This document shows positions 2,146 through 60,425 of a DNA stretch of 64,000 nucleotides, one piece after another. The position numbers were made by a program, and so were the translations under genes. Each line of letters opens with the position of its first letter. Position 1 is the first letter of the stretch. Under the pieces are notes generated by a model that did not search any database, had not been told where the DNA came from, and worked only from the letters and a program-made list of their open reading frames with translations. The DNA comes from Euglena gracilis (Eukaryota), in NCBI GenBank assembly GCA_039621445.1, contig CP154954.1, forward strand, positions 33,271,455-33,335,454, in the 5' to 3' direction.

Positions 2146-2211
2146 AGTTCAACTGGAACAAGAAATTCAAAGAACAGAAACACAGATATCAACAAAGGAC
2201 TTCCATGAAGA

Positions 2212-5200: not shown

Positions 5201-5300
5201 AAAATCTGGGAAATGTCAAGAGATATGATTCAGCCTTCAGGACATTGGTGGGCCAATTGTCGCACAAAGGGGTGCCCTGCAGGACTGCACAGTCCACAAG

Positions 5301-6413
5301 ATGGCCGAGGCCATCCTTGATTTGGCTGCCCACAGCCTCAACACTGCACGCAATGCATATGCAGCAGTTTTATTACTCCCAGGGTTTGGGTCATTGAGGT
5401 TTTCCCCTCTTTTGTCTCCATTGAAAAGGAAATGGAATTCCAATGTCTGCAAGTATGCCCATTTCTGGGACCCTACTGATTTTCTAAACAACATCATCAA
5501 ACAATCAAGACCCCTCTCAGAACTCTCTGTGAAAGAGCTCAGAAACAGACTCATCATTTGTTGGAGGCTTTTGGCCCTCCACAGGGGGGTTGATTTAGCC
5601 AGGACACAGCGAAAAATCAGTTTCGTGGGAGAAAAAAATTATATTTTATTGCAAAGAAAAGGGTGGCAATTCCCAAGATGGGAGGAAGTTTTGAATTTAC
5701 CACACACCCCCCTCATCAGCCCCTGGCACCTATTGAAAGAGTATGTGGAAAGGACAGCCCACATGGTTGGGCACAAAAATAATTTGTTATGGTCTTTGGA
5801 TGGTAAACGACCTTTGACATCAGAAAGAGTGAATTCCCTTACCAAAGAAATTCTGCAAGAGGGGGGGGTGGACACCACCCACTGGAAACCCCACAGCACC
5901 AGAGGGGCTGGGGTTTTATGGTGGAAAAATGCGGGTTTACAAGTGGAAGAAGTCCAGCAGCTGGGTCAGTGGAAAAATTTTGGGGCCTTCCAAGCTCACT
6001 ATTTGCGACTGGGTGTCGTTTCAAAAATTCAAAATATTATGGCCCAAAGGGGGGTGCACAGTACCTCACCATCTCGCAGTGCGGAGCCCGAATGGTCTCG
6101 GACTCCCACGACAGAGGAAGGGGGAGGAAGGGACCAAGAGGGCGAAGCACAAGAAGATGGTGAGCCCAACCCCCCCACCCAAAAAATCAGCGGAAAAAGA
6201 AAAACATCCCAACCAGAAAGGGGACCCCCGACCAAGCAGCCCCAACCACCCACCCGGAAAAACACCAGAAAGAGACCACCATCCCCATCGAGGGGGGGGC
6301 CCCCCAGCAAGCAACCATGCGTGAGGGGGGGGGCGGGGCCACGACGGTTCCACTTCGCCAAGGTGTCGGACGAGGCCTCATCTTCGCCAACTCCGGCAAC
6401 AAAGGCGCAGTAA
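5301..6413 (+). CDS. DIRS tyrosine recombinase; N-terminal part lies in the 2212 frame upstream of a frameshift near 5270-5280
   Basis: Catalytic pattern: LHRGVDL (R), PHSTRG (HxxR), LGQWK...FQAHY (W...Y). Confidence 0.9.
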   Translation: MAEAILDLAAHSLNTARNAYAAVLLLPGFGSLRFSPLLSPLKRKWNSNVCKYAHFWDPTDFLNNIIKQSRPLSELSVKELRNRLIICWRLLALHRGVDLARTQRKISFVGEKNYILLQRKGWQFPRWEEVLNLPHTPLISPWHLLKEYVERTAHMVGHKNNLLWSLDGKRPLTSERVNSLTKEILQEGGVDTTHWKPHSTRGAGVLWWKNAGLQVEEVQQLGQWKNFGAFQAHYLRLGVVSKIQNIMAQRGVHSTSPSRSAEPEWSRTPTTEEGGGRDQEGEAQEDGEPNPPTQKISGKRKTSQPERGPPTKQPQPPTRKNTRKRPPSPSRGGPPSKQPCVRGGAGPRRFHFAKVSDEASSSPTPATKAQ

Positions 6414-31600: not shown

Positions 31601-34600
31601 CTCCTTGTCGTCACTGCGCGGTCCAGCTGCGGTTTGGCCCGTTTGAGCAAGTCCCAGATCCGGAATTGCACACGGAAATACTCTTTCTTGATCTGCTCCC
31701 GCCGCTTGATGAGCCGCAGAACATTGAGCACCTCCACCTCCAGGGCTGAAGGGTGGCTTGCTGTGCATCCGGGCTGGTCTAAGGGGGACCCACTTCTCTG
31801 CTGCGCTAAAATGGCCTTTCGGCAGCCTTCAAGCAGAAAAAACTTGCTGTCCCTCATGCCTCATGGACCGACCGCCCTCATCGTTGGGCATGGGGGGCGG
31901 GGGAATGAGTTAAAATGAGAATCCTGATGATGGTTGATGCTGGTTGGACTGTGGTTGGTTTGATAAGAAAACATGCTGAACAAAAAACCTCCCAGCATTC
32001 GTTGGGCAGATGCCCTAAAACTGCCCCAGTCATCCCTGCCCTCCAGACCGTCTCGCTGGCGTTGTTGTCAGGTGATGCCTGACTCCGTTGCCCACCCCCT
32101 GCACAAAAATAACACACCATTTCGAAAGAACATCCCCCAGAATTGATTGACCCCCCTCATTTCCGGCAACAAAAATTGCGGTCCAAACCCCTGGAGCCTC
32201 CCTCCCTCTTGAAACCCCCCCCCTGGAGCGGGGGTCACGCAGGTGTCAATTGAATCTCTGGTTCCGAACCAGGCTGTTTTTTTTACCAACCCTGGGGGGG
32301 AGGGGGGTCCGGAGTGCCTGCCCAGGCAGGCACTACCCCCCCCCTTAGTTACAAGGCTTCTTGCCTGATTATGGCCGGCGCTAACTGTTTATGGCCGGCG
32401 CTAACTTCGCTTCTGGCCCAGTTTGCTGCGTGGTGAGTGGCCAGGGACCCCTTACACCAGTCCTCTTTTGTTGCTCCCCCTGGCCGGGTGAGTAACTCTG
32501 GTGAAATTCCAGCGCTGTAGGGACCATGCATCTCTCTAAGGTTTTGCGAACCCCCCCCCCCCGGGGGGGGGGGGGGTTGCAGCCACCCCCAATTTGGGCC
32601 CAGCCCAGGCGCAGCAACACCCCCCCGGGGGGGGGCGATGCTCCTACCCCACCTAGCCAGCCCCTTTTTTGGGGGGTCCAGCCCAAAATTTTTCGGCGCA
32701 AAGCGCCGAAATTTTTTGAAAAAATGTGTTCAAAAGTGGCCAAAAATGGGGTTTGGGGGGCGTTTGGGGCATTTTTGGGGGGTTTCAGTGCATCATTTTT
32801 TCAAAACTGTGTTCTGCAGGTCATTTTTGGGCACTTTTCCGATTTCAGTCCAGCTCGCCCCGGTTCAGGCCCAGCCCCCCCCCCCGGGGGGGGGGGGCGG
32901 GCTAGCCAGCCCAAATTTCTAGCCAGCCCAAATTTCTAGCCCTAGCCCAGCACCCCCCCTCCGGGGTCCTCAAAGAGATGTATGGTAGGGAAATACACTC
33001 ACCTTGTGTGGTTGGTGTGGTTCCCGTGGGTGGGTCTACACCCTTGCGCCCCACTACCCCCCCGGGGGGGGTCGAATTTCGGCCTGCACCAAAACAGATT
33101 CCTTTAAAAATAGGCCATTTTTGGCTCCCCGGCACCTTCGGCACCGGGGTCTGTGCCAGGGGACTTTTGGCCGTGTACCCTACCCCTGGGGGGGGGGGGG
33201 TCGGATCGGGAGTGCCTGCCCAGGCAGGCACCCAGTCCCGGGGTGGGGTTGGCACCCGACTAAAATACAGCCTGTTCTGAACAGGTGAAACTTGCGGTCC
33301 GAGCGTTGGAATCGGGGGGGGGGGGGATAAAACATAATCCCTAAAATCACCGGCAGGAAAAGAACATAGGCATCATCTTCTTGGAGATCATCCAAAGCAG
33401 CAGAGGTGTTGGCCAGCTTGAACCGGGGACAGTTGCGCAAATAATTTTGACTCTTCTCAATGTCCAAAGAAGGAATCTGCTGTCATTTTTTCTGGGTGTT
33501 AAGAAGGCGAATTTGATTTTGACACCTGTTTCCAGGGCAATCCTGCGCACCAAGTTTTCAGGAGCGCAACTCCTCAGGTTCTACAGTCGTGGGCTGTTTT
33601 CACCACCCGCAGGAGGCAGCTTGGAGGGGAGGATTAACTATTTTGATATTGATCCGGAGCTTTGCAATGACACCCAACGGCTCGATTGGCTGACCCCACA
33701 AATGTGCCACTGTGCGCCGGCAGCAACGGGCTTACCCCCCCCCGCGAAACTGTCATGCCCGAGAACCTGTCGCTCCAAAATCTATGCTTCCAAAATTTAG
33801 CTTGTGGTTCGCAGAGCCCTTTCGAGGGGCTCATAACTCGGGATCGAGTCAAGGAGAATGAGTGGAGACCACTCATTTTCACAGGTAATTCACAATCTAT
33901 AACATGGCATATATCCGGGACCACAACACTGCACACAACCAAAATCACGACTGCCACAAAAACTAAAAAAAATACAAAACACGAGAAACAAACGTAAATG
34001 AAACGCAATGCACCCACCTCCCCCTAAACGCCTGCTCCACCAACCACCAAAAAAAGCAGACAGGAGGAAAACACCAAATTGCTCAAAAGCTCACAGAGGA
34101 CACCCAAAAAAGCACCAAATTGCAAAGATTCCTTTGCGCGGTGGTGGAATGGTTGCTGGATATCAAAAGGATCGGCACTGGGCAGTGCTCAGGACCACAA
34201 TGAACACACCCAAGCGTGCTGCTTGGACGAGGCAAAGACACAACTGACAAGCAAACGTTTTTTGCAAAAGAGACATCAAGATGCGGATATGTTGTCAAAG
34301 TCCTAGGGGGGTCTCGAAAAAACAAATCTATAATTAATTCGTTTTAGAATCTTTCACATAGAATAAATAGGAATTTGAACCAGAATTTGCTTATACAAAT
34401 CTATATTCCGTTCTAGTAGAAAATTCTATATCAAATTATATTTTGGGGCTTCTGGCTAAAAAGAACACAAACAGCACAAATTACAAATTACAAACTCCTT
34501 TTTTGGTGGCGAAAGACGATGTGGGCCAAAAATCGGCACCATGTGAAAACAACAATGAGGGGTCAGCCAAACCCACTGCCCAGGGTTTCCAGGACTCGCA

Positions 34601-37806: not shown

Positions 37807-40800
37807 GGACGGGAGGCTGCGGCTCACATAGGGCCACAAGGTGCGGGCAGCTGGATGGGCACCAGCGCATCCGCTGCAATCCGCATGGACACCTGCAAAA
37901 CAGGGAAAAGATAAGCAGCGACAAAGGAAAACAAGCAAAAAACTCTCTCTCAATGCGTCAGTTGTTCAATGGGAGGTGGAAATGAGGATTTCAACATGTT
38001 TTCTGCCCCCCCACCCAACTTGTGCCCAATTTTTTGGTGAAAAATGCAAAAAAAAAATGGGTGCAAAATGGCGGACGTACACCTTCTGGACCATAGATTC
38101 ACTCGGTGACCAGGGGGGGGATGGGGACTTTTTCCCTGGCCCAGCCCACCCAGTTTTTTTTAACCCCCCCCCACAACCCCCCAGTCACCCACCCACCCAA
38201 AATCCAACCAAAATCGGCTGAAAACGCTGAAAAAAATTTTCCGGCCCGGCCTTTGGCTGAGAAAAAACCTGACCGATGGTGCACCTGCCCCCCGGCAGCC
38301 CCGGGGCCCCAACCATACCATTGCTTGGCGACCTCCCCCTAGGGGGGAGTGGGGTCACTTCCACTCTGAAAAAACCAGTCAGCTTTTTTCAAAAAAAAAG
38401 CCGCTTTACCCCCGGGGGGATCGGCCACTCTTGAATGCGCTCATGTTGTCAAGGCACTATTGCCAAAAAGACTCAAAAACTTACAAAAAAAACTTCCGGC
38501 GCCAGGCAAGCCACTTTTCCATTTTCGGGCCTACCCCCCCCGGGGGGGGGGGGGGGGCTCTTGGTCAGAAAACCAGTCAGTCACCCCCCAGGGGTGGGGT
38601 GGGACAGGTGTTAAGCAATGATGTGGCCCCAACCCACCTCGAAAACCCACCTGCCCCCAGGGTCACACAGATGTTAAGTGAATCTACAATCTGGACCCAT
38701 GGCAGGTGCTGGGGGGGGGGGGCAATAATCCCCCTTTACCACCCTGCCCAACACTTCACAAAGACTTACTCTGTCTTGGGAATGCAAAGAAATAGCAGGA
38801 ACACAGGCATTTTCAACGCCTTAAAAACCCGTGAAACAAAATGATAAACACAAAAAAAATCATTCTGGCAGATTATTCTATGACGCGCCAAAATGGAGTC
38901 ACAAAATCACGGCGAAAACAAAGCAACTCCAGTGAAAAAATGCTTCCTGGCATCATTGTCTGTGCAAATATTATTTATTTTCGACTCCATTTGATGCTCA
39001 GACCGCCTTGGGAACAAAAAGTTTTTTAAAACGCCAGACAAATTTTATTGGTCGCCACACCTAGCTGGCGCGGGGGTGTGGGGGGGGGGGCTAAAATAAA
39101 AACCTGGTTTTTGATTGTTGTTGCCAAGAGGGTAATGCCCAGTTGACTCCCACCCAGAAGCTATTTGATAGAGACTGCCAAAATATCCCTTCTTGTAGCA
39201 CAAGCGCAGATGTTGATTGTGAATCCGTCTTTGGTCTTTGGTGCAACCAACAAAAAATCCATCTAAAAAATCCTCAAAATTTATCGGTTGTATCAGCAAC
39301 CACATGCATGTGGGATACAAACAAACCCAACTACTTCTAAAAACTTGCACCAGACTACACTTCAATATCAACTTGAAACCTTTCTGCAAAATTTTTGTAG
39401 ATTCAGAGGAACAAATAGCATCGTCAGCAGGCAAAAGACAAAGGAAGCAAACAATTCAAAGTCGGTGGGGTCAGTGTGATAGCCAAGCACCCAAACGATG
39501 ACACTGAAACGACAGGGACAAGAAACAGATCCACCCCAAATGCTTTTCCATCTTTGCGTCCAACATCCCGGCTGCATTTGGTCAAACTTTCTTTTGGAAA
39601 ATCCTCTGCGTTCACTTAGTGCACTCTTTTCGGGGAAACAATAAAATAACGTTGCCATTTGAGATGCAACACAATTTGTAAATTTGTGAACTTTGGGAAC
39701 AATGCAAGCCCTTTTGCCAAAAGCAACATCAATGGTAAATAAATTTGTTCAACTTCAACAAAAAAAGGGAAAAAGCAAAACAGCTGGAGCCCATCAAAAG
39801 CACAAGGGGAATCCTCAACAAAGCCACAAGCGAAAATTCGTTTCCATTGATTAGCTCTGGTGTTCTGGAAGCAGGATTAGTCCGGAGTAAAATGCAAGGA
39901 ACGCCATTACGTCCCCTTTCCCATTTCCGGCTCTTCTGCCAGCGCATTTCTCGCATATGGGTTTGGCGGCCGAAGGTTTGGTGTCCAGTAGAGAAAATCG
40001 TCGCGGCGTTTCCATTTTCATTTGCTTGTGACGAATGATAAGAAATCCTCTGCACTGCAGAGGGTGCAGTGGCCCCTTTTCTTGGCTCCAATATCTTTCT
40101 GAGGGGCTCACTTTTCAAATCTGCAAGAGGGCAAGAAAGCAAGTTGGTTGGAAGTGTTAGGATTCAAAATGCGACCACTCAAAAAGAGGAGATATGGGTT
40201 CAGCCGTTGTACTACAGGGTGGGCAGGGGTGAGCCCCCACCAGATTGCAATGAAATTCAGCAATTTGAGTATGCAAAAACAATTTTTTTGCATTTTTGAT
40301 TTCCTTTTTTGTAAATTACTCTTTTCCCCAGGGCCGATTTTTCACCACATGCACCAACGCCGGTATCCACCCTTCCAACGCAAATTGGATTTTCACCTGT
40401 TCCCAGTCACTTTACCATCATGGAAAGTTGACATATTGGTTGAAATGTGAGTCAGTAATGAATTGTCAGGGGGGTCAAAACAACGCCATATGAACTGTAA
40501 ATTTTTTGAAAAAAATTTTCCACAACACGAACTGGTCCAAATCCTCTCACATCTGACAACTTCACCACGTCAATTCTCAAACAATGACAGAAACCCCTTC
40601 TTCATACATTTCTCTCACCTTGGCCCATTATGCCCCCATTGAAAAAAATACAAAAATCACACATATAAGCACACTTTTGTTGCATGAAAAAAGGGGAAAG
40701 CATAAAACATAACCAAAAGATACATGAAAAAAATATTCCTAGATACCCTTGGTCTTCAGCTCTTCTCAACACAAAATCAAAAAAAGCATCCACAGCATTG

Positions 40801-41248
40801 TCGACTTGGTTGGAGCCATGTCAACAATATTGTTTAACCTGAAGAATCAAAAAACAAAAAAGAACCTTTTACGTCCAGGTGTTTTTTAAAGACCCCTGGA
40901 AGCTTCAATATAAGGGCAGCTGGGGGGGGAGGTCTGGGTGACCGATTTTTGGTCTGGGTGGCAAACTTTTGGCGAAGCGCCAGGACAAAATTTTGACCGA
41001 CCGCCCAAAACGGTCAAAAGTGCCATTTTGGGAACTGTTTGGGCAAAAACTTGTCAAAAATGCAAAAAAAATTCGGCACAAAGCTCCAAAAGAAAAAAAT
41101 TGACCTTTTGGGGGGTTGCCGGATGACCTCCCTGCTGGGGTCGGTCTGGACCTCCCTTGGCACGTGGGGGTGGGGGTGGTCCGGACAAGAACCTTGGGGG
41201 GTGGGCCGGGGAAAAAGGTGGGTGGGGGTTGGGGGGGGGCGCCCGGCA

Positions 41249-41529
41249 CAGGGGTGTGTGTAAGACCGGGGGGGGGAGGGTGGGTCCCCCCACCCACCCC
41301 ACCCCGGGGGGGGGGGGGAGGGGTCCCGGAGGAACCCACAAAAAAAAATGGCCGAAAAAAATCGCGAAAAAAAGTGCTAAAAATAGAATTTTTTTCGGCG
41401 CCTGCAGCGCCAAAAAAAAGTATATCCCACCCACCTCCGGGGGGGGCCCCCCCCCGGGGGGGCCCGGCCGGGCCCACCCCCCCCCCTCCTCCCTCCCCCC
41501 CCGGGGGTCCAAACTTAAAAAAATCCCTG
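41249..41529. mobile_element. hAT-like MITE, TSD GCCCGGCA, same family as 10161-10416
   Basis: gcccggca-CAGGGG...cttaaaaaaatCCCTG-gcccggca. Confidence 0.9.
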
Positions 41530-42122
41530 GCCCGGCAGCCGAGCACCTTCAATACAGGCAAAAAAAAACAAAAAAAACCCCAAATCCCGCCAGACTGTCA
41601 TTTTTTTCCAAAATTGGCGGCCCCCCGCTCTACCCCCCCCCCCCCTGTCAACCGACTGGGTTCCCATAACCCCGACCATGGGGGGTGGCCATGCGCGCCC
41701 CCCAACCTACAACCCGGTGGTCGCACGACTACCGATTCTCAAAACCACCAACAGGGGGGGGTGATTGTACGTGCCCCCCTTATGTCAACCCCCAAAGGGG
41801 GGGGGGTCCTCAAAAAAAAGCCATTATGGCCATTTTCGCCCCCTTAATGTAAAATCGAATTGAAAAATGATCGATTCTCACCTGGGGGGCCAATAAAAAT
41901 GTTGTGTGGTGCAATTTTGCCTCCAACCAACAAAAAACATGGTTTTTTTTTTGTGCAATTTAAGCTCTTTTTTCAATCACTTGCAAAGAGTTGACAATTT
42001 ATTTGCACGCAAAAAAAATTATCTGAAGACACATCATTTTGAATTAAAAAGCAAAAACCCAGGAACCCAGTGCAAGTGTTGTTGGCGACTTTTGGACAGC
42101 GTGCCGGGAAAAAAGTCCACGG

Positions 42123-42408
42123 CAGGCTTCTTTTTAAGACCCCCGGGGGGGGGGGGGGGGGGGGGGGTCCCCCCCACCCACCCAGGGTGGCGCGCGCCCC
42201 CACCCAAGGGGGGGGGGGGCGGGGACCCCCCCAAAATTGGGCCCGTTAAAGGCAATTTTCAAAATTTCCGCGCTTCGCGCCAAAAAGGTATACCCAGCGC
42301 CTCCGGCGCGGGACCCCCCCCCCCAGGGGGGGGGTCCGGCCTGGACCCACCCCCCCACCCCCCCCCCCCCCGGGGGGGGGGAGGTCAGGTGACTTAAAAA
42401 GAAGCCAG
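42123..42408. mobile_element. hAT-like MITE, TSD GTCCA(C/T)GG
   Basis: gtccacgg-CAGGcttctttttaag ... cttaaaaagaagccag-gtccatgg. Confidence 0.88.
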
Positions 42409-42703
42409 GTCCATGGTGGTTGCGGCTTTTTGCCCCAGCACATTTTTTTCAATCTAAAAATTAAAGTTGCAACACAGACTTTCAAGTTGGCAAGGCGGCA
42501 CCGACAAGAACGTTGCAGAGCAGATGGTTATAAAAAAAAACTTTCCATCTTGGTTACGGCACAAAGAAAGATTTTTCCCGTGATGTTAACAACAAGTGTG
42601 GGTTGGACTTATTCCCCCCTCATTCCTGGGTTGTGCTTTTTGAAAATCAAAATTTGACACACTCCCCTCATGGTAAGCTTTCTGGGGGCATGACTCCAAC
42701 ATG

Positions 42704-43203
42704 CAGGGAATTTCTTAAGGACCCCCCGGGGGGGGGGTCCAGCCTCCGGCTGGCCAAAAGGCTGCTTGCTGGATTTGAGCTGCTGGCTGGACTCCCCCCC
42801 GGGGGGGGGGGGGGGGGGGGGGAGGGGGGTTTCCGGGGTTGGAGCTGGCTGGGCTGGGCTGGGTCGAAGAAAAACAAAAATTTCTAACACATTTTCGACA
42901 TTTTGATGGGTGGAGCTAGATCAAGGCTGGGGGGCTGTGATGGAGGGGCTGTGATGAGGGGGAAAAATGCAGGGATAAGTGAGCTGGACAGCCCAGTTGG
43001 CTGGCCGGCCTGCGGCCGGCTGGGCCGGCCTTCGGCCGGCTGGCCCGGCCTCCGGCCGGGCTGGACCCGACTTTATTTCACTCGACCCCGGGGGGGGGGG
43101 GGGGGCTCCCAGCCCAAATTTGGGCTGCTGGCTGGATTTGAGCTGCTGGCTGGCTGGACCCCCCCCGGGGGGTAGGGTACCCTCCGGCTTAAGAAATTCC
43201 CTG
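42704..43203. mobile_element. hAT-like MITE (500 bp), TSD CCAACATG
   Basis: 16-bp TIR cagggaatttcttaag and a perfect TSD. Near-identical to 45391-45894. Confidence 0.95.
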
Positions 43204-43348
43204 CCAACATGACCTGTCAGCCGTACTGTCTCAAAATGGCCACTTAAAAAAGATAACAACTTCCCTGTAGCTTTGAGAATTACCAAATTGCTCCATGCAA
43301 CCATTCGCCCAGCTGTGGCCAAACAAATGACACGGATTGGGTGCATGC

Positions 43349-46300
43349 CTAAAGGCCCTTCGCGCTGGTGTTTGCCCGAACCACAAGGTGCCGGGTCTCG
43401 TCCAAGGGGTAGTTGTTCATGCTCTGGATGGCCCCTTGGGCCTCCTCCGGGGAGGTGAAGTGAATGAAGGCAATATTGCCCACCGGGTTGGAACCAGGTT
43501 GGGGTCGGCGAGGCCTGACGGGCACCATCGGCGGGCCGAACCGACCAAAAGAGCACAGCAAACGCCCAACCTGACTGGAGCCTCGGGTCAGCTGCACCTT
43601 GGAGATGGTGCCGAACCCCTCAAAGAGAGACTGCAGAGCAGTCGGGGACAGGACGGCAGCCGCCAATTGTGATGGGCGAAATGGGAACCGGGGACCAACT
43701 GGGCACCTTCGCAGGGCTCATCATTTGGACGGAAGACGGCCCCTCACTTGGGCCTATAGAAAACCGTGATTTGGCCCCAAAACAGGAAACCGATTGGGGG
43801 TTCCCATTGGGATCCCCGGGATAACTATTCCGATGTGCCGGCCGGATTAGGGTGTGAAAAAGATGCAGATATCAAAAAACTAGCCAGATAACGACAGTTT
43901 TGAAAATCTCCTGCTGAGCTGGCGGATGGGGGGAAACCGGCAAAACGACAGCGCTGCAGGACACGCGGACTGATTCCTCGGAGTCATCCCCCCCCGGAAT
44001 GGGAATGGGGCGACCGTCCTGCTCTCATCCCAATCATGGGGCACCCCGCCGACGTAGACAGACGTGGGGCTCGCCACTGCACCACCCTTGCCCCGGCCCC
44101 GGCCCTTGCCCAGCCCGCGGCCGCCGGGGAAGCCCGCCGGGGCCCCGTAGGCAAAGCCGCCCCCAAAGCCACCAAAGGCACCGCCACGGGGAATCTTGAA
44201 CGCCGGGCCACCGAATCCATTGTCCGCGGAAGGCTTTTTTCAAGCACGTGGCAATGCAAAACAGAATCACACAGAACGATTTAGGTGAACCACTCTGATT
44301 TTCTTCGAGGACAATGCCACCCGTTCAGGATTCTCACAAGGGATTGGTGGTAAAAAAAAATGGCCAAAAAATGGTGCAAAAAGAAAAAAAATGGAGCAAA
44401 ACAAGGGAAATATCCGGACATTTTCCAAAAATTTTCTGTCGCGGCCAAAATGGAATAAAAATATTTAACCAATTTTTGGTCATTGGAAAAAATTTTACTG
44501 CCGCCAGCGAACTCCCCGCAGGGTCAGTGTTGGGTCCAGGTGCCTGCCAGGGGGAAGAAAGATGAAGCCCCCTTCGGCCCTCCCGGCTGTTGGGGTGACC
44601 CAAAAAGGGCCGGTGTTGGGATTCGGATTCGCCCGACGTCAGGCCGGGTGGAGGGGTGCTGCTGTGGCTGATTTTGGCCCAGCTGCAGCAGCCCCCCCCC
44701 CCCCCCCCGGGTCTGCAAAACCCGACAGACATGAATAATCCTGCCCCGAAAAGACTGAGATGAGAAGAAGAAGATGAGGGGTTTAAAAGAAGCCTGCCCA
44801 AGGGGCCGCTTCATCCCAGTGCCCGGCAGAGCATCCCGCAGCTGCGTGGAGGACATGAAGACCTTCAGCGTTTGGGGGAAATCCTCGTCGAGAGGGTAGC
44901 CGTGAGAGGCAGGGGCATGCTCGCACTGCCGCCCGAAACCTTGGAGGAATTCCGTCCCATCCAAACGATGCAGAAACTCACATTCAAATGATGCGAGGAC
45001 CTGGGGTTCCAAAGCTTCATTTTAGGTCACCGATTCCTTTGGTTTTGCTCACTTCCGCGATATGTTGACATCGGTTCTCCGACCCCAAGAACAGCCCAAA
45101 ATAAAGGGGCCGGATTGGCTGGAAAATGGCCTGAGAAAAATGGGGATGAACTGGAAAACCTGGTGAGACAAAAAAAAGTCATCACTCTTGAGGGGGTTTT
45201 CTTGAATTGAGAGAGAGGACGTCGTGGGCTGAACCAAACATGGTTCTGCCTCTGGCTTTGAACCTGTGTTTGGTCGGTTGGAAGGTGAGGATGACCCTGG
45301 CAGAGCCACTCAATTGCTGCCTGTGCCTCTTGCGGTGTGCCAAACCTTGCATAACCGACCTGGTGCCCTGACTTGGTGGTGCCAGGGGACCAGGGAATTT
45401 CTTAAGGACCCCCGGGGGGGGTCCAGCCTCCGGCTGGCAAAAAGGCTGCTGGCTGGATTTGAGCTGCTGGCTGGACCGCCCCCCCCCCGGGGGGGGGGGG
45501 GGGGGGGGGGGGGGGTCTGGGGCTGGAGGGGGCTGGGCTGGGCTGGGTCGAGGAAAACCAAAATTTTCCAACACATTTTTGCCATTTTCGACATTTTGAT
45601 GGGTGGAGCTAGATCAAGGCTGGGGGGTTGTGATGGAGGGGCTGTGATGAGGGGAAAAAATGCAAGGATAAGTGACCTGGGCAGCCCAGTTGGCTGGCCA
45701 GCCTGCGGCCGGCTGGCCCGGCCTTCGGCCGGCTGGCCCGGCCTCCGGCCGGGCTGGACCAAACGTTATTTCACTCGACCCCGGGGGGGGGGGGGCTCCC
45801 AGCCCGAATTTGGGCTGCTGGCTGGATTTGAGCTGCTGGCTGGCTGGACCCCCCCCCGGGGGGTAGGGTACCCTCCGGCTTAAGAAATTCCCTGCAGGGG
45901 ACTCAGCAAGCGCCCCGTGGACGCTGTGTGCAGGGATGCCGAAGCGCAACCCCCCCACCCCAAATGGGCCATCTGAGGGCATTTCCCCCCAAAATTTTTG
46001 GCAATGGCCAAACCTCCCAGGGTCCACCCCGGAGTTCCAGGGGGGGTCTTCCAAATTAAAAAGCCTGAGCACCCCTGAGAAACCCGCCTAAGAAAAATTG
46101 CTGGGCCCCCCAATCCTGGGATGCGGGAGGGTCCAGCTTGTCCCCCAAAAGCCCAATCCAGCTTGGTCAGCATTCTTGAGCCAAAATCTGGAGGTGCAAA
46201 TCCAAAAGACCCCCCGTCACTTGGTGACCCACCCCCAGGGGGGTCCACCTCAGAGGCTGAAAATTTTGGGCTGGCTGGAAAAAGGCTGACCCCCCAATAG

Positions 46301-49300
46301 GCCAATAGGGGGGGGTCGCTGAGCTCTTATCTCTTTAGAGTAAGAGCGAAGCTTACCACCCCGGCGCCGGGGGGCCCCACCCCCCCCCCGCCCCCCCCGC
46401 CCCCCCCGCCCCCCCCCCCTGGGTAGGTCCGGAAACCCCGGGATTATCGATGTGACTGGATTTTGTGGCCCCCAAAGTGAATGGCCTATAGGTTAGGAAA
46501 GGATCCCTAGTACCTCCAGAGCCTTTCGGTTACCCGCAACTCCCCGCCAGTCCGGAGATATGGCCCGAGCAAAAAAGTTGTCTACCGTTTTTTTTCCAAA
46601 GAAATTTTGTTGGACCGGCAAAAGGGGCCATTTTTGGGGTCAAAAAATCGAAAAATTCAAAATATCTCGAAAACGCTGGGGAGTTGAGAAAAAGTAAAGA
46701 GTACCTCATTCCACAACTTTGGGACGCCCTATCCACCGGTATGCGCGGTTTGGTCCAACTCCCCGCCTGGCCCGAGATATGGCCGTTTTTCGGTCCAAAT
46801 GGCCGTTTTGTACACTTTTCCCACTGTCCGACTTAGCCGTTTTCTGGCCAAAAAGTCGAAAAAATCGAATTTTTTTTTTCGCCCAAAACCATGTTTTTTG
46901 GCCTCCCGGACCCGAAAAAAGTGTTTTTGAGCTGAAGATGAGCGTTTTTCGACCCGCCAGCGCCCCGTTTTGGTTCGCCAACCCATTGACTTTGGGTCAA
47001 AACCAGGTCAAAAAAGTCGAAAAAAATCGAAAAAATTTTTTTCGCCCAAAAACATGTTTTTTGGCCGCCCGGACCCGGAAAAAGTGTTTTTGAGCTGAAA
47101 ATGAGAGTTTTTCGACGCGCCGGGACCCCTTTTTGGTTGGACAACCCATTGACTTTGGGTCAAAACCGGGTCAAAAAAAACCAAAAAAATCGAAAAAATT
47201 TTTCAGCCCAAAACGATGTTTATGGTCTCCCGGACCCAGAAAACATGTTTTTGGGCCAAAAATGAGCGTTTTTCGCAGGCCGGGCCGGAGTGGTCCCCCA
47301 AAGAGCTCAGCTCTACGTCACACCCTGGTCGCTGAGCTCTTATCTCTTTAGAGTAAGAGCGAAGCTTACCACCGGGGCCGGAGACCCCCCCTTACCCCCC
47401 CGCCCCCCCCCCCCCCCCCGCCCCCCCGCCCCCCCCCGCCCCCCCCTGAGTAGGTCCGGGCACCCGAGGATTATCGATGTGATTGGATTTCCGTGCCCCC
47501 AAAGTGAATAGCCTATAGGTTAGGGGACGATCCCTAGTTTCTCCAGAGCCGTTGGGTTCCGCGCAACTCCATGCCAGTCCGGAGATATGGCCCGAGCAAA
47601 AAAGTTGTCTACCGTTTTTTTTTCCGGGGAAATTTCAGGGTCATTTTGGGGTCAAATAATCGAAAAATTCAAAATATCTCAAAAACGCTGCGGAGTTGAG
47701 AAAAATTAAAGAGGACGTCATTCCTCAACTTTGGGACGCCCGATCGATCGGTATGCGCGGTTCGGGCCAACTCCCCGCCTAGCCCGAGATACGGCCGTTT
47801 TGGGGTTTTGGGCCAGTTTGGCCAGTTTCAGCCGTTTCGGGCCCGTTCGGGCCCCGAAACCGTAATTTGCCCGTATCTCGGGCTAGACGGGGAGTTGGAG
47901 CCCAAACCAGGGGGTCAAACATTAGGTTTAGGGGGGGGTTTTGACCGTTTTTTGGGGTTCCCGGGGTCTGGTTGTGCGATTTTGGGCCATTTTTGGGTAT
48001 TCGGGGACCCCTGCGGGGGTTCGAGGGCCGCCATGCTGGGGTCCAAAAATCGAAAATTTCAAAATATCTCGAAAATGCTGCGGAGTTGAGGAAAAGTGAT
48101 GGCGACCTTATTTGACGACCTTGGAACGCCCGATCGATCAGTATGCGCGATTTGGGACAACTCCTTGCCTAGCCCGAGATACGGCCGTTTTGCCAGTTTT
48201 GGCCCGTTCGGGGCCCGAAACCGTAAATTGGCCGTATCTCGGGCTAGACGGGGAGTTGGGACCCAAACTGGGGGTCAAACATTACGTTTAGGGGGGGGTT
48301 TTGACCGTTTTTTGGGGTTCCCGGGGTCTGGTTGTGCGATTTTGGCCAGTTTTGGGTATTCGGGGACCCCATCACGCGCCGTTGGGGCGGCTGGGCGAGG
48401 GGGGGTCGGGTGGCAGGTCGGGACCCAAAATTTTGAAAAAATTTTTTTCGCTCAAAAACACTTTTTTTCACTTCAGAACTCAAAAAAAAGTGTTTTTGAG
48501 CGAAAAAGAATTTTCCGACCCGGACCCCTCCATGCCCCCCCTTGGATGCCCCCCCCCTGGCCGGTGGACTTAGCCATTTTTGGGTCAAAAAGTCAAAAAA
48601 ATTCAAATTTTTTTTTTCGCCCAAAACCATGTTTTTTGACCTCCCGGACCCGAAAAAAGTGTTTTCGAGCCGAAAATGAGCGTTTTTCGACCCGCCAGCG
48701 CCCCGTTTTGGGCCGCCGACCCATTGCCTTTGGGTCAAAACCAGGTGAAAAAAGTCGAAAAAAATCGAAAAAAAATTTTTCGCCCGAAACGATGTTTTTT
48801 GGCCTCGCGGACCAAGAAAAACTGTTTTTGAGCCGAAAATGAGTGTTTTTCGACCCACCAGCCGGGCCGGGCCGCCGGCCGCCGGGCCGCCGGGCCGCCG
48901 GGCTACCGGGCCGCCGGCCGGGCCGGCCGGGCCGCCGGGCCGCCGGCCGGGCCTGGCCGCCGGGCCGCGGGCCGGGCCGCCGAGCCGCCGGGCCGTTCCG
49001 GGCCAGGCCGGGCGCTGCGCCGGACTGGGATCGTCTCCCAAAGAGCTCAGCTCTACCTCACACCCTGGTTATGGGGGGGGTCCCTGGCTGGAACTGGGCC
49101 GACCTGGGGTCGAACCTGGGAAAGGCCAAAAATGCCCAAAAAACTGCCAATTATGCAAAAAAAAATCAACTTTTCGATCCAAAATTTGCCTGGCCAGCCC
49201 AAAGCCGACCCGTTATTTGCCCATTTTGGCCAATTTTGCACCCCCGAAAGCCAAAAATCCGTCACCGTCCAGCCGCCCAAAGGGCGGCTGGAAAACGACA

Positions 49301-49637
49301 ACTCGTCGATGGGGGGAGGCTGCTGGCTGGCTGGATCCCGCCAGGCATGGGGTCCACTTCGGCTCAAGTGATGTGAATGTCTCCAGCCAAGGTGCCAAAG
49401 CCCACATCAGAAGAATTGCTGTGGTCCCCTGCATATGATTGATGATGCATCGTTGCACTCCGGCAGCAAATTTGAACATCAAGCGGAATTCACGCGGTGT
49501 TGCGGGCAATGGTCACCCAACTGTCACATCAGCCTGAAGGAAAGCAAAAGGTTCCCTTTCATAAATGGGGGGCCATTGGATATGTGGTCTGGGAGGTTTC
49601 CGACGCAGATGGTGGTCGATGCTTCAACCAATGCCAT
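43349..49637 (-). CDS. Two-RRM RNA-binding protein with a Gly/Arg-rich linker (paralog A), 7 exons, all six introns nonconventional
   Basis: Exons 49637-49582, 49501-49435, 45377-45303, 44904-44800, 44224-44025, 43643-43577, 43489-43349 join in frame: MALVEASTTICVGNLPDHITPREFRLMF...GHQVGYARF...HGYPLDEDFPQTLKVFMS...SVYVGGVPHDWDETALQSLFEGFG...GNIAFIHF...MNNYPLDETRHLVVRANTSAKGL*. Aligns with paralog B. Confidence 0.9.
45391..45894. mobile_element. hAT-like MITE, TSD CAGGGGAC, inside intron 2 of paralog A
   Basis: caggggac-CAGGGaatttcttaag ... cttaagaaattCCCTG-caggggac. Confidence 0.95.
46317..49069. mobile_element. Head-to-tail pair of a non-autonomous element with asymmetric subterminal inverted repeats (Helentron/HINE-like)
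   Basis: Units ~46317-47329 and ~47330-49069 both start cgctgagctcttatctctttagagtaagagc (hairpin) and end aagagctcagc-tctac.tcacaccctggt. Confidence 0.6.
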
Positions 49638-51786
49638 AATATTGTTGCGTACCTGTGAGAGCAAATGAGGGTGGAAATGCAACTGAAACCGTGTTGAATA
49701 AAAGCTTTCGAAGTGTGCTAATCAGGGCGTTTTTTTTACGACCCACTGGAAAGGATGAACAGGGGAGTTATCCAGTCAAACGAGGAGAGCGGGACAGGGC
49801 TGTGGGGGGAAGGCTGGGGAGGAGGGGATGGACCATGGAGGGGGGGGATATGCAACAAGGCTCACCAAATATGCAAGGCAAAAAAAAAATGCAAAAAAAA
49901 ATACGCAAGCTTTGCATAAATCCCCTGAGGAGCTCCCCGGGGCTGTGCACTTTTTCACTGGAGATGACTTCGTTGGTTCCTAAAATCTGTTTTGAAAATT
50001 TTCCAAGACAAATTTTTGAAAGCTTTTTAAAGTGCCTGGGCCAGACCCCCCCAGGGGGGGGTTCTCGGACAGAAAATTGGTTTTGGTGCGAGGCAGCCAA
50101 TTTTTTTTGGGAAATGCCCTATTTGCTATTTTTGGAACCTGCCGAGGAGGGGGTGGGGGGAGGTCCACACCATACCATTGGTTGCCGACCCCCAAGGGGG
50201 GGGGGTAACTTTCCACTTTCAAAAAGCCAGTTATTCACTTTTCAAAAAAGGATTTGGTCAAACCCCACCTCCGGGGGGGGGGTCTAGGGCCAAAAACCAG
50301 TCAGTCACTCCGAAAAAACCAGTCAGCCACTCCCGGGGCAGAACGGGAAGGCCTGGGGGGGGGGGGGTCGACCCCCCCCCACCCACCACAGCATCTTCAT
50401 CGATTTCGGGAAAATAGGGATTTTGGCCGAAATTTTTTGAACTTTTTTGAAAAATGAATTCAAAACACATGATTTTTTGATGGAAAACCACATTTTTTTC
50501 CACAAAAAAATCTCAAAATTTTCAGGGTTAAAAATTGGTATTCTTAGGAGGGGGGGGGTGAAAAAAACCAACGTCAAAAAAAAGTGGACCAAATTTTGGC
50601 ACAGTCAAATTTTACTGACATTTTTTCTCTGTGAAATTTTTTTGGATTTTCAATGGCATTTTTTTTTGGCTTCCAAACCAGCCCCCACCCACACGGGGGG
50701 GTCGACCCCCCCCACCCACCACCCTGGCTGTTTGGCCGATTCCCGTTCCGCCCTGGCCACTCCCCTGGGGTGGTGTGGTCCTGAAACAATGGGATAATCC
50801 AGACCCCCCTTCCGCTCACCTAATACCCCGGGGGGGGGGGTTCAGACCCCTCCGGTCAAAGGGGTTGGACTACCCCCCGAAAGCCCGGATGCCTGGTGAA
50901 AGCCCGGATGCCTGGTGAAAGCCCGCCTACCTGCCAACCATGGGAAACCTGTTCATCCCTGGACCTCACGCGAAGCAATGCGAACTGCACAAAACAAAGG
51001 GGTGAGAGGATCGACGGTGGTGCCTGTGAGCCGTCGCCTTCATCAGTGATGGTGCGTCCGAACAGTGAGGCCTTCTTCAGGCATCAGGCGATAATTGTGG
51101 CCTAAAACGCACAGCAAACGAACGGAGGAAAGAGGGAGTTCAGAAAGGTTCGGGATGGCGTGCAGCACCAGTTGCGGCAAGTGGTGACCGCAGCCATTGA
51201 AAAGATACATCTCAAAAAAATGAATGGATGGAGAACTTGACAACAGCGTTTTAAACCAAAAAACCACTGTCCCCCAACGAAAGCTTCTCTTTCTTTTGGC
51301 TGGAGATAATGTTTTCACTTCCTACTCCCATTGACGAAATTTGAACGATGCTTTCCGCAAGAAAAAGACATCATGCAGAGGAAATCAAATGGGTTTGAGA
51401 GTGACCCCTTTGCCATCAACATGCGTCAAATCCCACATGGTTTTTAAGTTCTTTGGGCCTCCCAGACGAGGAAGGAAACTGAAAACAAAAAGTAACATCA
51501 CGGTCTCGATTGTGTTTCAGAGGTATCTTTGGCAGAATACAACCTCCGTCGCTTGCATATGTGAAATACCTTGATCATAATTCTTGGCTTTGTGCTATGG
51601 CGTCTCAATTTGAGTGCTTTACAATGCAGAGGAGGGAGCAGGCTTCTTATTAAAATACGAGGGGGAACAGAGGAAGGGAACTGTCCATCCATTTTCCAAA
51701 TTAACTTGGGAAATGCCCTGCTTTCCCGCCAGGGGTTTTATTTTTAAGACCGGGGGGAGGGGTCCCCTCCACCCACCCCCTTGAGT

Positions 51787-55918: not shown

Positions 55919-58900
55919 CTAGATTCGTGGGCTGCTGGTGTTGCCCCGCACCACGAGGTGACGGGTCTCGTCCAGCGGGTAGTTGTTCATGCTCTGGATG
56001 GCGCCTTGGGCCTCCTCTGGGGTTGTGAAGTGGATGAATGCAATGGCATCAGAGATGCAGGCTTCAGTGTCCAGGTGACAAATTCGGCAGGTAAAGCAAG
56101 CAGCAGGTTTTGTGGTTTTTGGCCAGTAAACCATCATAGAAACCTGTTGTGAACAGGCCATTGCTTGAGGAACTCAGCGGATCCACTGGCTAGCCATTTT
56201 GCTGGACACTGGAAAAAATGGACTAGTTAGACCCCGGGGGGCCCCCAGACTGGGAAAAAATTTCCTCCGGCGCTGTGAGCCGAGGTGGAAAGGAGGTTTC
56301 TTTTGCATTTCTCTTCGGCACTTCGCACTGAAACCGAAACCCAGGCCTCCTCCAGCCCATCTGTGTCAGAGGGTTTTTTAGGACCCAGGGGGGGTCTGGA
56401 CCAAAACACTCGGCTTCCGGGAGGGGGGGCACCTTTGGGGGTCAATTTTGGGGTCCAAAAAAAACTTCGGCGCGAATAGAAGAAAACCCTGCCTCCAGCG
56501 GGGCACCATACTCCCCCGAGCTATTCCAAATGGTCAATATTGAGCACTTTTGACAAAAAGTGCTTTTTGAAAACGTCCAAAAAAACGTCAATTTTGGACT
56601 GTACTTTTTTGAACTGCACTTTTTAAAAAGTGCTATGACAGTGACCTAATCCCGCCCCCCCCCCATGGGAATAGCTCGGGGGGGCATGGTTCCCACTCGC
56701 CCTACCCCACCCCCCCAGGGGGTTCGGCCGGGACCCATCCACCGGGTCATGAAACTTAAAAAATTTCTGGTCTGTGACCCCGCCGGGGGGGGGGGGGTCT
56801 TCTGAGTTTAGAAAAGCCTTCACTGGATAGCACACTCTTGCATTGCTGCGGCAGGTTCCTCCTTGGAATGTCACAACGACATTTTCAGTCAACCACATCT
56901 TTCATTTGTGATGATTGTGAACCAACAACTTGAAAAACCTCAATCGTCATCGAGGTCTCTTGAGCAGTGCAAGCGTATAACGCTCAGTTGTTACAGAATG
57001 GGTCATTACCTTTTCCCTATCAATGGATTCGATGAGAAACAGCCTCCACTGCAAACATCCCTGGGTGTTCCCAACTGGGTTGCTTCCACGAGTGAGCTGC
57101 ACTTTGGTGATTGTTCCAAATCCTTCAAACAGGGACTGGAGGGCAGTCAATTGAAGAGAAGAGCCACTTTGAATCTCGCTTGGTTGTTGGAAATGTACAG
57201 AGGGGCTATTTTACCTACCAGACACCTTCATTAAGTTCATCTGGGTGCACACACAAAGGGATTTTGTTAGGGTGCGTGTTTTGGCCATCCTTGCCTTGCA
57301 CACCCAAGGGGGTTTTGTTATTTTGGGGGGGGGTCCCGGGGGCCGACTAAGTTCGCGTTTTGGCAATCATTTTCCTTTTTGGAGGGATATGGGACGCTTT
57401 TTGACAGTTTCAAGGCCATTCCAATGTGTTTCCGTGCATTTTGAGTCAAATTTACTGACTCAAATTTCGGGGGGGGGGGCTTAAATTCAAAAAAATCGGG
57501 AGGTAATGCGGTTGATTGGAGGTCGGGCCGACCTGGTCGGCCTGACCTCCAATGGTCGATAAGCCATAGCCAATGGTCGGCCCGACTTCGTCATAGCCAA
57601 TCATCCGCACGGAGCCCTGTTTTGGAAATAGAGCACCGTGCAGCGTGGAAAAATCTGATGACACCGCTGGTCATCTGGTGATAAGAGCTCGAGGGGCAAC
57701 TTGGCACCCTAACGTTGTACGCAGACCGAGATACGCTCGCGATCGTCGGATCAGCCAGAATCTCAATCGAAATTTGTCGTGATTTTTGGTGTTCCTTACT
57801 TTAAGATGCTTAATGAACCACACAGAAGCGATTTTTCTCTTCGAATCGACGGCCTGAGGGGTCCAGGGGGGCACAAGGATTGTGAAATTAGGATTTCCCA
57901 GTCAGGATACTGGGATACTGGGATACTGGGAAGAGTACTGTGCAGCGTGGCTGAATTTGGTGGTGATTACTGGTTGTCTGATGAAAAGAGCTTTCGATTG
58001 AGGGGTGAGTTTGTACCTGAGCGATCGACACAGCCAGAGATACGCTCACGACCGTCGGAATTTGGCTATCAGATCAGTGGTGAATGATTGGTCCTGGGAG
58101 TGTCCTTACACCGAAGGTTGGGAACGCCGGTTTCCCCAAAAACGCCGCTTTAAAGAGGGGGGTGGGTTGGTTTCTCCGGGCAATTGGGCTTGGCTCGAAA
58201 GGCAGGTTGGGACGAAGATTTTTGCTTTGCATGAGAAGATCTTGATCGGCCTGACCCCCCAAGTAACGGATGGTGGGGTGTGTTGGAAGCATGCTGCGTC
58301 TGTGCTCTGGAAACACTTGGCACTTCCCTGGGCTCATCCCAGTCATGGGGTACACCTCCAACATAAACGGATGAGGGGCTGGAGGCTACACCACCAGGCT
58401 GAAATTGAAATTGGGGGAGGGGGGTCTGGGAGTGCCTCAGGCAGGTGCTGCACCCCACCCCAGGGGGGTGCAGCACCTGCCCCACCCCCCCCCCTCCTGG
58501 CCCGCAGGGGGGTCCGGGGACCCCCTCTCCCCCCCAGGGTTGGTAAAAAACCCAGCATTTTGGGCACTTTTTGGCCCACGACCTGGCCCAAAATTTTTGA
58601 CCCCCCAAAACGACCAAAAGTGCCATTTTGGGCACTCTTTGGGCAAAAATTTGCCAAAAATGCAAAAATTTTCGACGGGTGCCCCCCCAGGGTCGGTCCG
58701 GACCCCCCTGGCAGGTGGGGTGGTCCGGCCCCCCCTGCGGGCCAGGAGGGGGGGGGTGGGGGACACCCCCCCACCTAAACCATGTACGCCCTCCTTATAT
58801 CAAACCTTGGGCACTACCCCCCCGGGGGGGGTCGGATTTCGGTCTGTGCCCAGGCACATTCCTTTGAGGATAGGCCATTTTTGGCTCCCCGGCGCCGGGG

Positions 58901-60425
58901 TTGTGCCAGGGCACTTTTGGCCATGTGCCCTACCCTACCCCCGGGGGGGGGGGGGTCGGATCAGGAGTGCCTTGGAGTGCCTGCCCCCCCCCCCGGTGGG
59001 GTCGGCACCCAACTAAAATACAGCCTGGCAGGAACCCCCGGTCAGCATTGCCTTGAAATTCAGCCTGTGCACCACCTTTCCCACGGCCTTTTCCAGCACC
59101 TTTGCCAAAACCACGGCCACCAATGAACCCAGGAGCTGCAGCAAAAGGCATTTCAGAATTTGACATGAGGTGAAACGAGGTGGCTTGGTTGAAGAGGTGG
59201 CCCAAGCACCTCAGGGCACCGAAGTCCGTTTTTTTTGACGATGACGGTTTACCTTGCTTGTTGCTGTGTCCGCTTCCAAAAATTCCTCCAAGGAAAAAAA
59301 CGCCAAAAAGGTCCTGGTATCCAAGAACCAACGACCTTGAATCCTTTGAGTCAGTACTTGTTCGCTACTCGACCGCCACCGAAATTTTTCAAAGTCTTAT
59401 TGGAATATTTAAGGTTATTGAAGGAGTAGGGTTTGGTGCGCACATGGACATGTTGTGCAACATGGCCATGTGCGCACCTAACCCTACCCTTCAAATAACC
59501 CCACAATAAACTGGCGGTCGAGTAGCAAACAAGTACCTTTGAGTCAACCAAGGACTTGAATCACCAAAAGTGCTCTAAAAAGTGGTCTTCTGAGGCGAGG
59601 CAGACAGTATCCAGCAACCCCCAACGTGCAGGTTTTGGCGATTCGCATTCTCTCCATAAGTTCTGGTTGGTGTGGGCTTCTCCATTTGGTGAGTTTTTGA
59701 AAAGACAAGTTGTCCAAAGAATAGAGTCCCTGCCAAAAACAAAATTTTCTTTGTTTCTTCCGATTTTTTGAACAAGCAAAAACCAAAATCAAACAACATC
59801 ACAACTGGTTCATTGCCGTTAGTGAGGTTCCAGGTTGATTTGACTTCCTCATGGTTCTCACACTTTGCAGTTCAGAAAAAGTGCTCAGAGAAACCTGAGC
59901 CTCTCACAAGCACATTTGAACAGTTGTCAAATTCTGTGCACTCCCCCCAACCGTGGGAATTTCGCTGCAGGTGCGCCAAAACCATTGTCCAGCGGGCGCT
60001 TTGGTCGGGTGCCAGGAAGGGCATCGCGCAATTGAGTTGAAGACATGAAAACTTTCAAAGTGTTTGGGAAGTCCTCGTCAATCGGGTATCCGTGAGCATC
60101 AGGGAAGCTGTCAGGTTGAAAATTTCATATAAAACTTCATATCATTTTCAGCAGCCCTGCGCAAGCCATTCAATGGCGGCTTGAGCTTCTTGTGCCGTTC
60201 CAAACCTTGCATAACCAACCTGGTGTCCAGCCTTGGTGTGATTGATGATGCACCGTTGGACACCGTTTGCGAATTTGAACATAAGGCGAAATTCACGAGC
60301 CGTTTACAACAGGAACCAATCAAAAAAAGAGCAAGAAATCTCACTGGAGAGTGATTCCTGCTCATATAGTCGGGAAGGTTTCCGACACAAATAGTTGTAG
60401 ATGCTTCAGGGATTGCGAGTTCCAT
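55919..60425 (-). CDS. Two-RRM RNA-binding protein (paralog B), 7 exons, all six introns nonconventional
   Basis: Exons 60425-60364, 60304-60163, 60094-59940, 59149-59071, 58389-58334, 57148-57067, 56044-55919 join in frame: MELAIPEASTTICVGNLPDYITAREFRLMF...HGYPIDEDFPNTLKVFMS...SVYVGGVPHDWDETALQSLF...GNIAFIHF...RGNTSSPRI*. The stop codon aligns with paralog A. Confidence 0.9.

Follow-up and report, generated by a model that had tools for sequence, protein, structure and literature searches.

The stretch analysed here is a 64,000-nucleotide window of the Euglena gracilis genome (contig CP154954.1 of assembly GCA_039621445.1, forward-strand positions 33,271,455 to 33,335,454; all coordinates below are positions within this window), whose minus strand carries two paralogous genes, A and B. 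The product of each gene contains two RRM domains (Pfam RRM_1) and a linker rich in RGG. That of gene A corresponds to P0002 (eukprot EG_transcript_12387), with 99% identity to the queried exon, and that of gene B to P0003 (eukprot EG_transcript_13479), both being transcript-derived proteins. Two features of gene A are the main subject: a 575-nt interval within the coding sequence, referred to as I4 (44225-44799), and M1, a transposable element of the miniature inverted-repeat type (MITE) located about 2 kb away in the same gene. The data identify I4 as a working euglenid nonconventional intron of an RRM/RGG RNA-binding-protein gene, one terminus of which matches the terminal inverted repeat (TIR) of M1, and I4 probably began as the insertion of a transposon with termini of that type.

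The sequences placed on 41900-46300 came from two raw RNA-seq runs (X20 and X24), from contigs that are probably RNA-derived (X1) and from a run with the behaviour of genomic DNA (X15). A joint 44223>44799, which skips 575 bases, is carried by 166+139 reads in X20, by 331+2 reads in X24 and by one X1 contig at a depth of 5086; it does not occur in X15. X24 is strand-specific (331 vs 2 reads), so transcription proceeds from the minus strand only. P0002 spans the same junction as GMKRPLDNGFGG, with the reading frame restored as KRPL|DNG. Each direction shows a depth of 0-2.5 in the three bins within I4, whereas bins in the flanking exons have 113-308 in the sense direction(s), which places retention of I4 below about 1%. 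The I4-free site is found in paralog B, where 59981-60001 (minus strand; AAGCGCCCGCTGGACAATGGT) encodes KRPLDNG without interruption and P0003 likewise reads KRPLDNG. An initial annotation of the window, made from its sequence, had predicted the KRPL|DNG splice, the intact motif in paralog B and an intron beginning GGG and ending CCGCG; the splice is now confirmed by RNA joints in three data sets and by P0002, the motif by DNA and protein, and the borders are as described in the minus-strand sequence.

The minus-strand ends of I4 read GGG CAGGCTTCTTTTAAACCCC ... AAAAAAGCCTT CCGCG | GAC, so that its borders are not GT/GC-AG, being GG..CG or, after a one-base slide, GG..GG. For euglenid nonconventional introns, knock-in mutagenesis has yielded the code 5'-N3-CDG...CH'G-N5-6|R (PMC12501133), and CAG is described at +4..+6 with CTG at -8..-6 (PMC11282704). 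I4 has CAG exactly 3 nt inside its 5' border (GGG|CAGG), and an N3+CAGG start is common to the five nonconventional introns of gene A; the base that opens the downstream exon is a purine (GAC). Positions -8..-6, however, are CTT and not the CTG that the initial annotation had given for the end of the 3' arm, and no alternative register yields CH'G; an X15 contig over 43996-44328 shows no differences, so the DNA-like run has the same CTT sequence. I4 falls among those nonconventional introns, 38.8% by the published figure, that lie outside the code (PMC12501133). CTT is therefore tolerated in place of CTG in a natural intron that is spliced with an efficiency above about 99%, a tolerance owed perhaps to its long stem. 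As an inverted repeat the two arms of I4 match at 12/16 positions and form an end-to-end stem in both the minimum-free-energy and the centroid fold, with a folding z-score of only -1.07 for the whole intron. A second CTT intron lies in paralog B at 57149-58333. The excised I4 may be released as a circular RNA; back-joints indicative of a circular form were absent among the 15 joints listed of 130.

Table 1. Coordinates of genes A and B, intron I4, element M1 and the paralog B MITE-intron in the window.
Feature	Position	Strand	Basis
Nonconventional intron I4, gene A, 575 nt	44225-44799, or 44224-44798 by 1-base slide	-	RNA joints, P0002
I4 5' spacer N3 (GGG), just before CAG	44797-44799	-	Register according to the PMC12501133 code
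I4 5' terminal arm CAGGCTTCTTTTAAACCCC, part matching the MITE TIR	44778-44796	-	Sequence
I4 3' terminal arm ...CTTGAAAAAAGCCTT, ends CTT	44230-44248	-	Sequence
I4 3' spacer N5 (CCGCG); next exon begins with G	44225-44229	-	Sequence
MITE M1, 286 bp	42123-42408	.	TIR, 8-bp target-site duplication, high copy
Paralog B nonconventional intron, 681 nt	58390-59070	-	Equals MITE 58395-59067 plus one 8-bp target-site duplication copy
Paralog A empty site for the paralog B MITE-intron, single GTGGTGCA	44078-44085	-	Sequence
Gene A exon	49578-49637	-	Aligned part, boundary approximate
Gene A exon	49435-49500	-	Upstream of intron 45378-49434
Gene A exon	45303-45377	-	Joint 44904>45303
Gene A exon upstream of I4 (...HGYPLDEDFP...KRPL)	44800-44904	-	Joints 44904>45303, 44223>44799
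Gene A exon downstream of I4 (DNGFGG...HDWDE)	44023-44224	-	RNA joints; lower boundary to within 2 bases
Gene A exon	43576-43641	-	Next to intron 43642-44022
Gene A exon	43349-43488	-	Stop codon TAG at 43349-43351
Gene A 3'-untranslated-region exon	ends at 40120	-	RNA reads
Gene B	about 55922-60425	-	Alignment of P0003 to DNA

M1 had been annotated as a MITE with TIRs and a flanking target-site duplication (TSD), and this description holds. Its arms (CAGGCTTCTTTTTAAG / CTTAAAAAGAAGCCAG) match at 15/16 positions, the two TSD copies at 42115-42122 and 42409-42416 (GTCCACGG / GTCCATGG) at 7/8, and X15 depth over the element is ~2.0x10^5 vs ~60-80 in unique sequence. M1 is not a free element as had been supposed, but lies inside a GC-AG intron (40121-43348, minus strand) in the 3' untranslated region (UTR) of the same gene. 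This intron starts directly after the stop codon TAG and the 3' UTR resumes at 40120, as seen from loose read ends at 43349 (589 in X20, 310 in X24) that continue with 30 bases identical to 40091-40120. At least three MITEs are held within it, namely M1, 42704-43203 and 41249-41529. M1 is ~77% identical to the last of these (perfect TSD GCCCGGCA) and, via that copy, is related to 10161-10416 (perfect TSD ATCCAGAT); an nhmmer profile of the three M1-family copies detects dozens of relatives across the window.

MITEs with CAGG-type TIRs and 8-bp TSDs are real and abundant in this DNA, and X15 depth over the MITEs is at least 10^5. When CAG...CTG pairs 50-1500 bp apart were selected for TIRs matching at 12/14 or better, 13/29 had 8-mer flanks that agreed at no fewer than 6/8 positions, against 1/29 for control 8-mers taken one step further out. 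An element scan free of this constraint also picks up termini of the CAT and CGG types. Near-perfect TSDs are present at 14 independent elements (8/8 in nine, 7/8 in five), most of which have CAGG ends, and within these TSDs position 2 is T in 6/14 and position 7 is A in 9/14 (P = 7x10^-4). A metagenome scan for the 22-nt end of M1 returned 0 matches.

The 5' end of I4 and the first 22 bases of M1 match at 20/22 positions, in an alignment that has two gaps of 1 base, is free of mismatches and scores 14. Compared with the 730 other CAGG sites in the window this end ranks first, with termini of further TSD-flanked MITEs as runners-up. A CAGG start is shared by all five gene A nonconventional introns, so that four matching bases carry no weight; with CAGG fixed, 2/200,000 CAGG+18-mers drawn from a first-order Markov null reach 14. 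Of 2276 CAG sites that remain once the listed ends are set aside, four reach this score, and all are MITE ends (41249, 41529, 59027 and the palindrome at 40876). A further comparison set 20 ends, from the 10 nonconventional introns of both paralogs that could be placed in register, against 26 ends of 13 MITEs: the I4 5' end scored 14, the I4 3' end 8 and the remaining 18 ends 1-8. The terminal similarity to a MITE is thus far better than that of the other nine nonconventional introns compared, in agreement with the link to M1 drawn in the initial annotation. The 3' arm of I4 carries ...TTTTCAAG, akin to ...TTTTTAAG in M1. The terminal match between I4 and M1 is specific and survives correction for about 10^3 end-by-family comparisons.

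Paralog B provides a cleaner case than I4 of an intron that equals a MITE. A MITE at 58395-59067, with TIR CAGGCTGAA...TTCAGCCTG and TSD GTGGTGCA / GTGGTGTA (7/8), interrupts the RGG-coding exon of this gene. Splicing in paralog B is read from the transcript protein P0003 only, the alignment of which to the DNA demands removal of 681 nt, i.e. 673+8, at any of 8 equivalent junction positions. Across the element P0003 reads KGGVASSPSS, in which the V codon GTA can come only from the right TSD copy, and this fits a 5|3 split of the duplication. Paralog A retains the empty site. Inside the element, identity to parts of the TSD-flanked MITEs 26703-27084, 32270-33274 and 12891-13164 is 73-92%. With a TSD and an empty site, the 58390-59070 intron counts as a demonstrable gain. 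A test for open reading frames (ORFs) running through the excision sites of 20 candidate elements was non-discriminating (random positions gave a median of 44 open codons), with a recognisable protein only at 58395-59067.

Paralog-specific nonconventional introns number six: 45378-49434, 44225-44799 and 43490-43576 occur in A only, and 59150-59939, 58390-59070 and 56045-57066 in B only. Their flanks match in TSD register at 1, 3 and 5 of 8 positions in A and at 2, 7 and 2 in B, respectively; one case is clear, one suggestive and four are at the level of chance. The 87-nt A intron 43490-43576 (TRGS|NPVGN), with flanks matching at 5/8, and the B intron 56045-57066 (NPVGN|IAF) are 15 nt apart in the coding sequence. 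Introns at positions common to A and B (IEWL|HGYP and DWDE|TALQ) retain CAGG ends. The B intron 59150-59939 has a perfect 11-bp TIR (CAGAATTTGAC) and spacers that sum to 7 (3+4 or 2+5), not 8; a GT-AG reading of it was rejected, since alignment of P0003 gives a CAG...CTG intron. Within this intron lies a 185-bp element (59353-59537) with TSD TTTGAGTC matching at 8/8 and TIR GGTACTTGTT. In gene A, the 4-kb intron 45378-49434 contains the MITE 45391-45894 at 8 nt from its 3' end, and the right TSD copy of this MITE (perfect TSD GTCCCCTG) provides the CTG acceptor motif of the intron. This MITE was also considered as an interruption of a coding exon and rejected as such, the true upstream exon being 49435-49500.

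Taken as a whole, I4 is probably the product of a transposon insertion at KRPL|DNG that was spliced by a 3+5-nt rule and has since decayed. The progenitor would have been a non-autonomous DNA transposon with M1-type TIRs (CAGG, a T-rich run, AAGACCCC) that created 8-bp TSDs on inserting into the coding exon. In the pre-mRNA the terminal arms would pair (AGGCUU with AAGCCU, the U-run with the A-run) and join the splice sites, and a non-GT-AG pathway would cut 3 nt ahead of the 5' CAG and 5 nt past the 3' CTT, restoring the frame as KRPL|DNG. Since such a rule removes exactly the element and one TSD copy, the insertion would have been tolerated. Decay would later have affected the interior of I4, its TSD and, by a G>T change, the final base of the 3' TIR. 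We infer the origin by transposition, the hAT-like superfamily of the progenitor and the timing of the insertion relative to the gene duplication.

Several results weigh against this origin. Of the link to M1 first proposed for I4, the terminal match stands, but I4 is not a recognisable family copy and its interior shows no similarity to M1; the alignment with the MITE family recommended at that stage finds nothing past the termini. With homopolymers masked, the best local alignment pairs M1 1-21 with I4 4-22, a score that 6/200 random window segments also reach, and the M1-family profile finds only a poly-C tract in I4 (E=1.3). Under the same masking the interior of I4 has no similarity to M1 or to seven other MITEs in either orientation, and the observed scores are reached by 35-197/200 controls for the seven other MITEs and by 13/200 for M1 in reverse. 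The stretch shared with M1 is only ~20 nt and T/A-rich, and I4 is single-copy at 95% identity or above, with an X15 depth of 60-500 vs about 2x10^5 in M1. No TSD is recognisable at I4, where CCCTTGGG and CCGCGGAC match at 3/8 against about 2 expected by chance. CTT lies outside the published code, and single substitutions of CTG abolished splicing of a test intron (PMC12501133). No transposase was found in the window, with neither DDE nor hAT domains in the 11/123 ORFs (at least 130 aa) scanned with Pfam. The absence of I4 from B would look the same after a gain in A and after a loss in B. High z-scores from unmasked alignments of I4 to 13 MITEs were caused by poly-G/C runs and were rejected, and a candidate remnant of the right TSD, in which the last 5 nt of I4 and the next exon (CCGCGGACAATGG) resemble the paralog B exon CCGCTGGACAATGG, was too weak to count. 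With no interior similarity, a single copy and flanks at 3/8, I4 shares the TIR type of M1 without being a recognisable copy of the M1 family.

The ends of I4 might also resemble M1 by coincidence or convergence: if CAG and a pairing arm are required and many arms are T/A-rich, a 20-nt match to one of many TIRs could be historically meaningless, and I4 would have arisen in some other way. This is consistent with the four free bases of the CAGG start common to the five gene A introns, with the lack of a TSD, interior homology or multi-copy signal at I4 and with the large look-elsewhere factor of scanning the whole 64-kb window. It is nevertheless unlikely, given that two in 200,000 random ends reach the score once CAGG is granted, that among real sites in the window only MITE ends do so, and that the 18 ends of nine other introns, at 8 or below, give no sign of general convergence. 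Furthermore, the abstract and Results of PMC12501133 report no sequence need beyond CAG/CTG and pairing.

Two other histories of I4 can be considered. I4 could predate the A/B duplication and have been precisely lost from B, in which case its TIR-like ends would reflect at most an ancient superfamily origin; this is a question of timing and partly overlaps with the transposon origin proposed above. The decayed TSD (3/8), the arms at 12/16 and the unique interior all point to age, the exons of the paralogs differ at about 12-25% of bases, and the introns that A and B have in common also keep CAGG ends. However, six paralog-specific introns, three in each gene and two of them (one per paralog) 15 nt apart, are better explained by repeated gain than by as many exact losses, for one of them a TSD and an empty site demonstrate the gain, and frequent gains of such introns are reported for tubulin genes (PMC3935182), so that a pre-duplication I4 is considered rather doubtful. 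Alternatively, a MITE may have inserted late at the end of a pre-existing intron and replaced its terminus, and the position of 45391-45894 in the 3' end of 45378-49434 demonstrates that MITEs do land in intron termini. For I4 this is highly improbable, as both of its arms are M1-like and lie at the exact N3/N5 distances from the exon borders, and no older CAG/CTG end pair or internal TSD was seen by eye. Insertion of an M1-type transposon into the coding exon, followed by decay, remains the most probable history of I4.

The same reading may be extended, more tentatively and at slightly less than an even chance, to euglenid nonconventional introns as a class. These introns would be transcribed MITEs with 8-bp TSDs and hAT-like CAG...CTG TIRs, and the spacer rule (3 nt before CAG plus 5 nt after CTG) would be the RNA-level image of the 8-bp TSD, so that the element and one TSD copy are removed together. 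As 3+5=8, the published splicing code would thereby be linked to a transposition footprint. If so, any such exonic insertion would be silent immediately, and both the ~70% share of these introns among Euglena introns and the fact that most are 'slidable' would be explained. A bolder extension, which the core claim does not need, is that transposase and excision machinery act on the same termini.

Other features of the window were recorded alongside. The gene A intron 43642-44022 (381 nt) has an X15 depth of ~1.8x10^5 over its interior (43664-43957) and unique depth at both ends, and the interior is a nested high-copy repeat. RNA reads carry exonic variants at 44887 (G>A in 430/620 and 522/691 reads, the X15 contig having the variant letter) and at 45336 (T>G in 283/761 and 395/745 reads), which look like alleles or near-identical gene copies. 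Scans of 40000-50000 for Rfam families and tRNAs gave no match. The MITEs 45391-45894 and 42704-43203 are two copies of a 500-bp element that share 91% identity and the TIR CAGGGAATTTCTTAAG; their TSDs are perfect (CAGGGGAC and CCAACATG, plus strand), and the second copy is located in the 3'-UTR intron. At 12449-13164 and again at 17811-18522, two different MITEs lie head to tail in one target site (CTACGGAT / CTACAGAT / CTACGGAT); the recurrence of this arrangement about 5.36 kb away, together with that of ORFs 8993-9676, 14624-15307 and 19981-20664, suggests a tandem segmental duplication. A 23-nt palindrome at 40876-40898 (CAGGTGTTTTTTAAAGACCCCTG) resembles two MITE-type termini without an interior and is possibly a collapsed element or a footprint. 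Finally, two long ORFs (1062 aa and 394 aa) occupy 2209-6413 on the plus strand. The 394-aa ORF has a sub-threshold Phage_integrase match (23.9 bits vs a cut-off of 27.1) and an HSTRG motif that we take to be tyrosine-recombinase-like, and the region may be a Crypton- or DIRS-like element.

Among known transposons, hAT MITEs have 8-bp TSDs, TIRs starting CAG or TAG and, for the Ac type, the target consensus nTnnnnAn. The elements of the window are similar in their 8-bp TSDs and CAGG TIRs, and the bias at TSD positions 2 and 7 fits this consensus; a hAT assignment of the CAGG elements is suggested by these termini and is unproven. Merlin also produces 8-bp TSDs in E. gracilis and is the sole DNA-transposon superfamily found reported there (PMC8101967), with copies that end ...ACAAGTAC and have the TIR GGTACTTGT according to the supplement of that article. 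These ends resemble the 185-bp element 59353-59537 and not the CAGG elements. Introner elements are reviewed for Micromonas, dinoflagellates and Fritillaria, with TSDs of 3 nt in Micromonas, where the TSD supplies one splice site, and of 3-5 nt in Amoebophrya (PMC11282704). Like the elements described here, introners are non-autonomous TIR/TSD elements in exons that are removed with the equivalent of one TSD; however, introners are spliceosomal and have short TSDs, whereas the window elements follow the euglenid non-GT-AG rule with an 8-bp TSD split 3+5.

I4 resembles the euglenid nonconventional introns in its non-GT-AG borders, N3-CAG start, 5-nt 3' spacer, downstream purine, pairing arms, efficient removal and paralog-specific position, and differs from them in having CTT where the code has CTG. 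The origin of these introns has been debated since at least 2014, when a MITE origin was hypothesised, together with the statement that euglenids had as yet yielded no identified transposable elements (PMC3935182). The hypothesis has been restated since (PMC6221363, PMC11282704, PMC11170887, PMC12621601, PMC12501133), and the origins are still described as unclear in 2025 (PMC12501133). Among the full-text articles searched, dating up to 2025, no report was found of non-intron MITEs that share intron TIRs, of an 8-bp TSD or of the equivalence of the TSD with the 3+5 spacer. I4 and its context are new evidence for this known hypothesis, and they make a genome-wide, countable test of it possible. 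Where the earlier articles offer the hypothesis only, a single window here unites non-intron CAGG MITEs with 8-bp TSDs, an intron that shares a TIR with one of them and a pair of paralogs with one filled, spliced site and one empty site.

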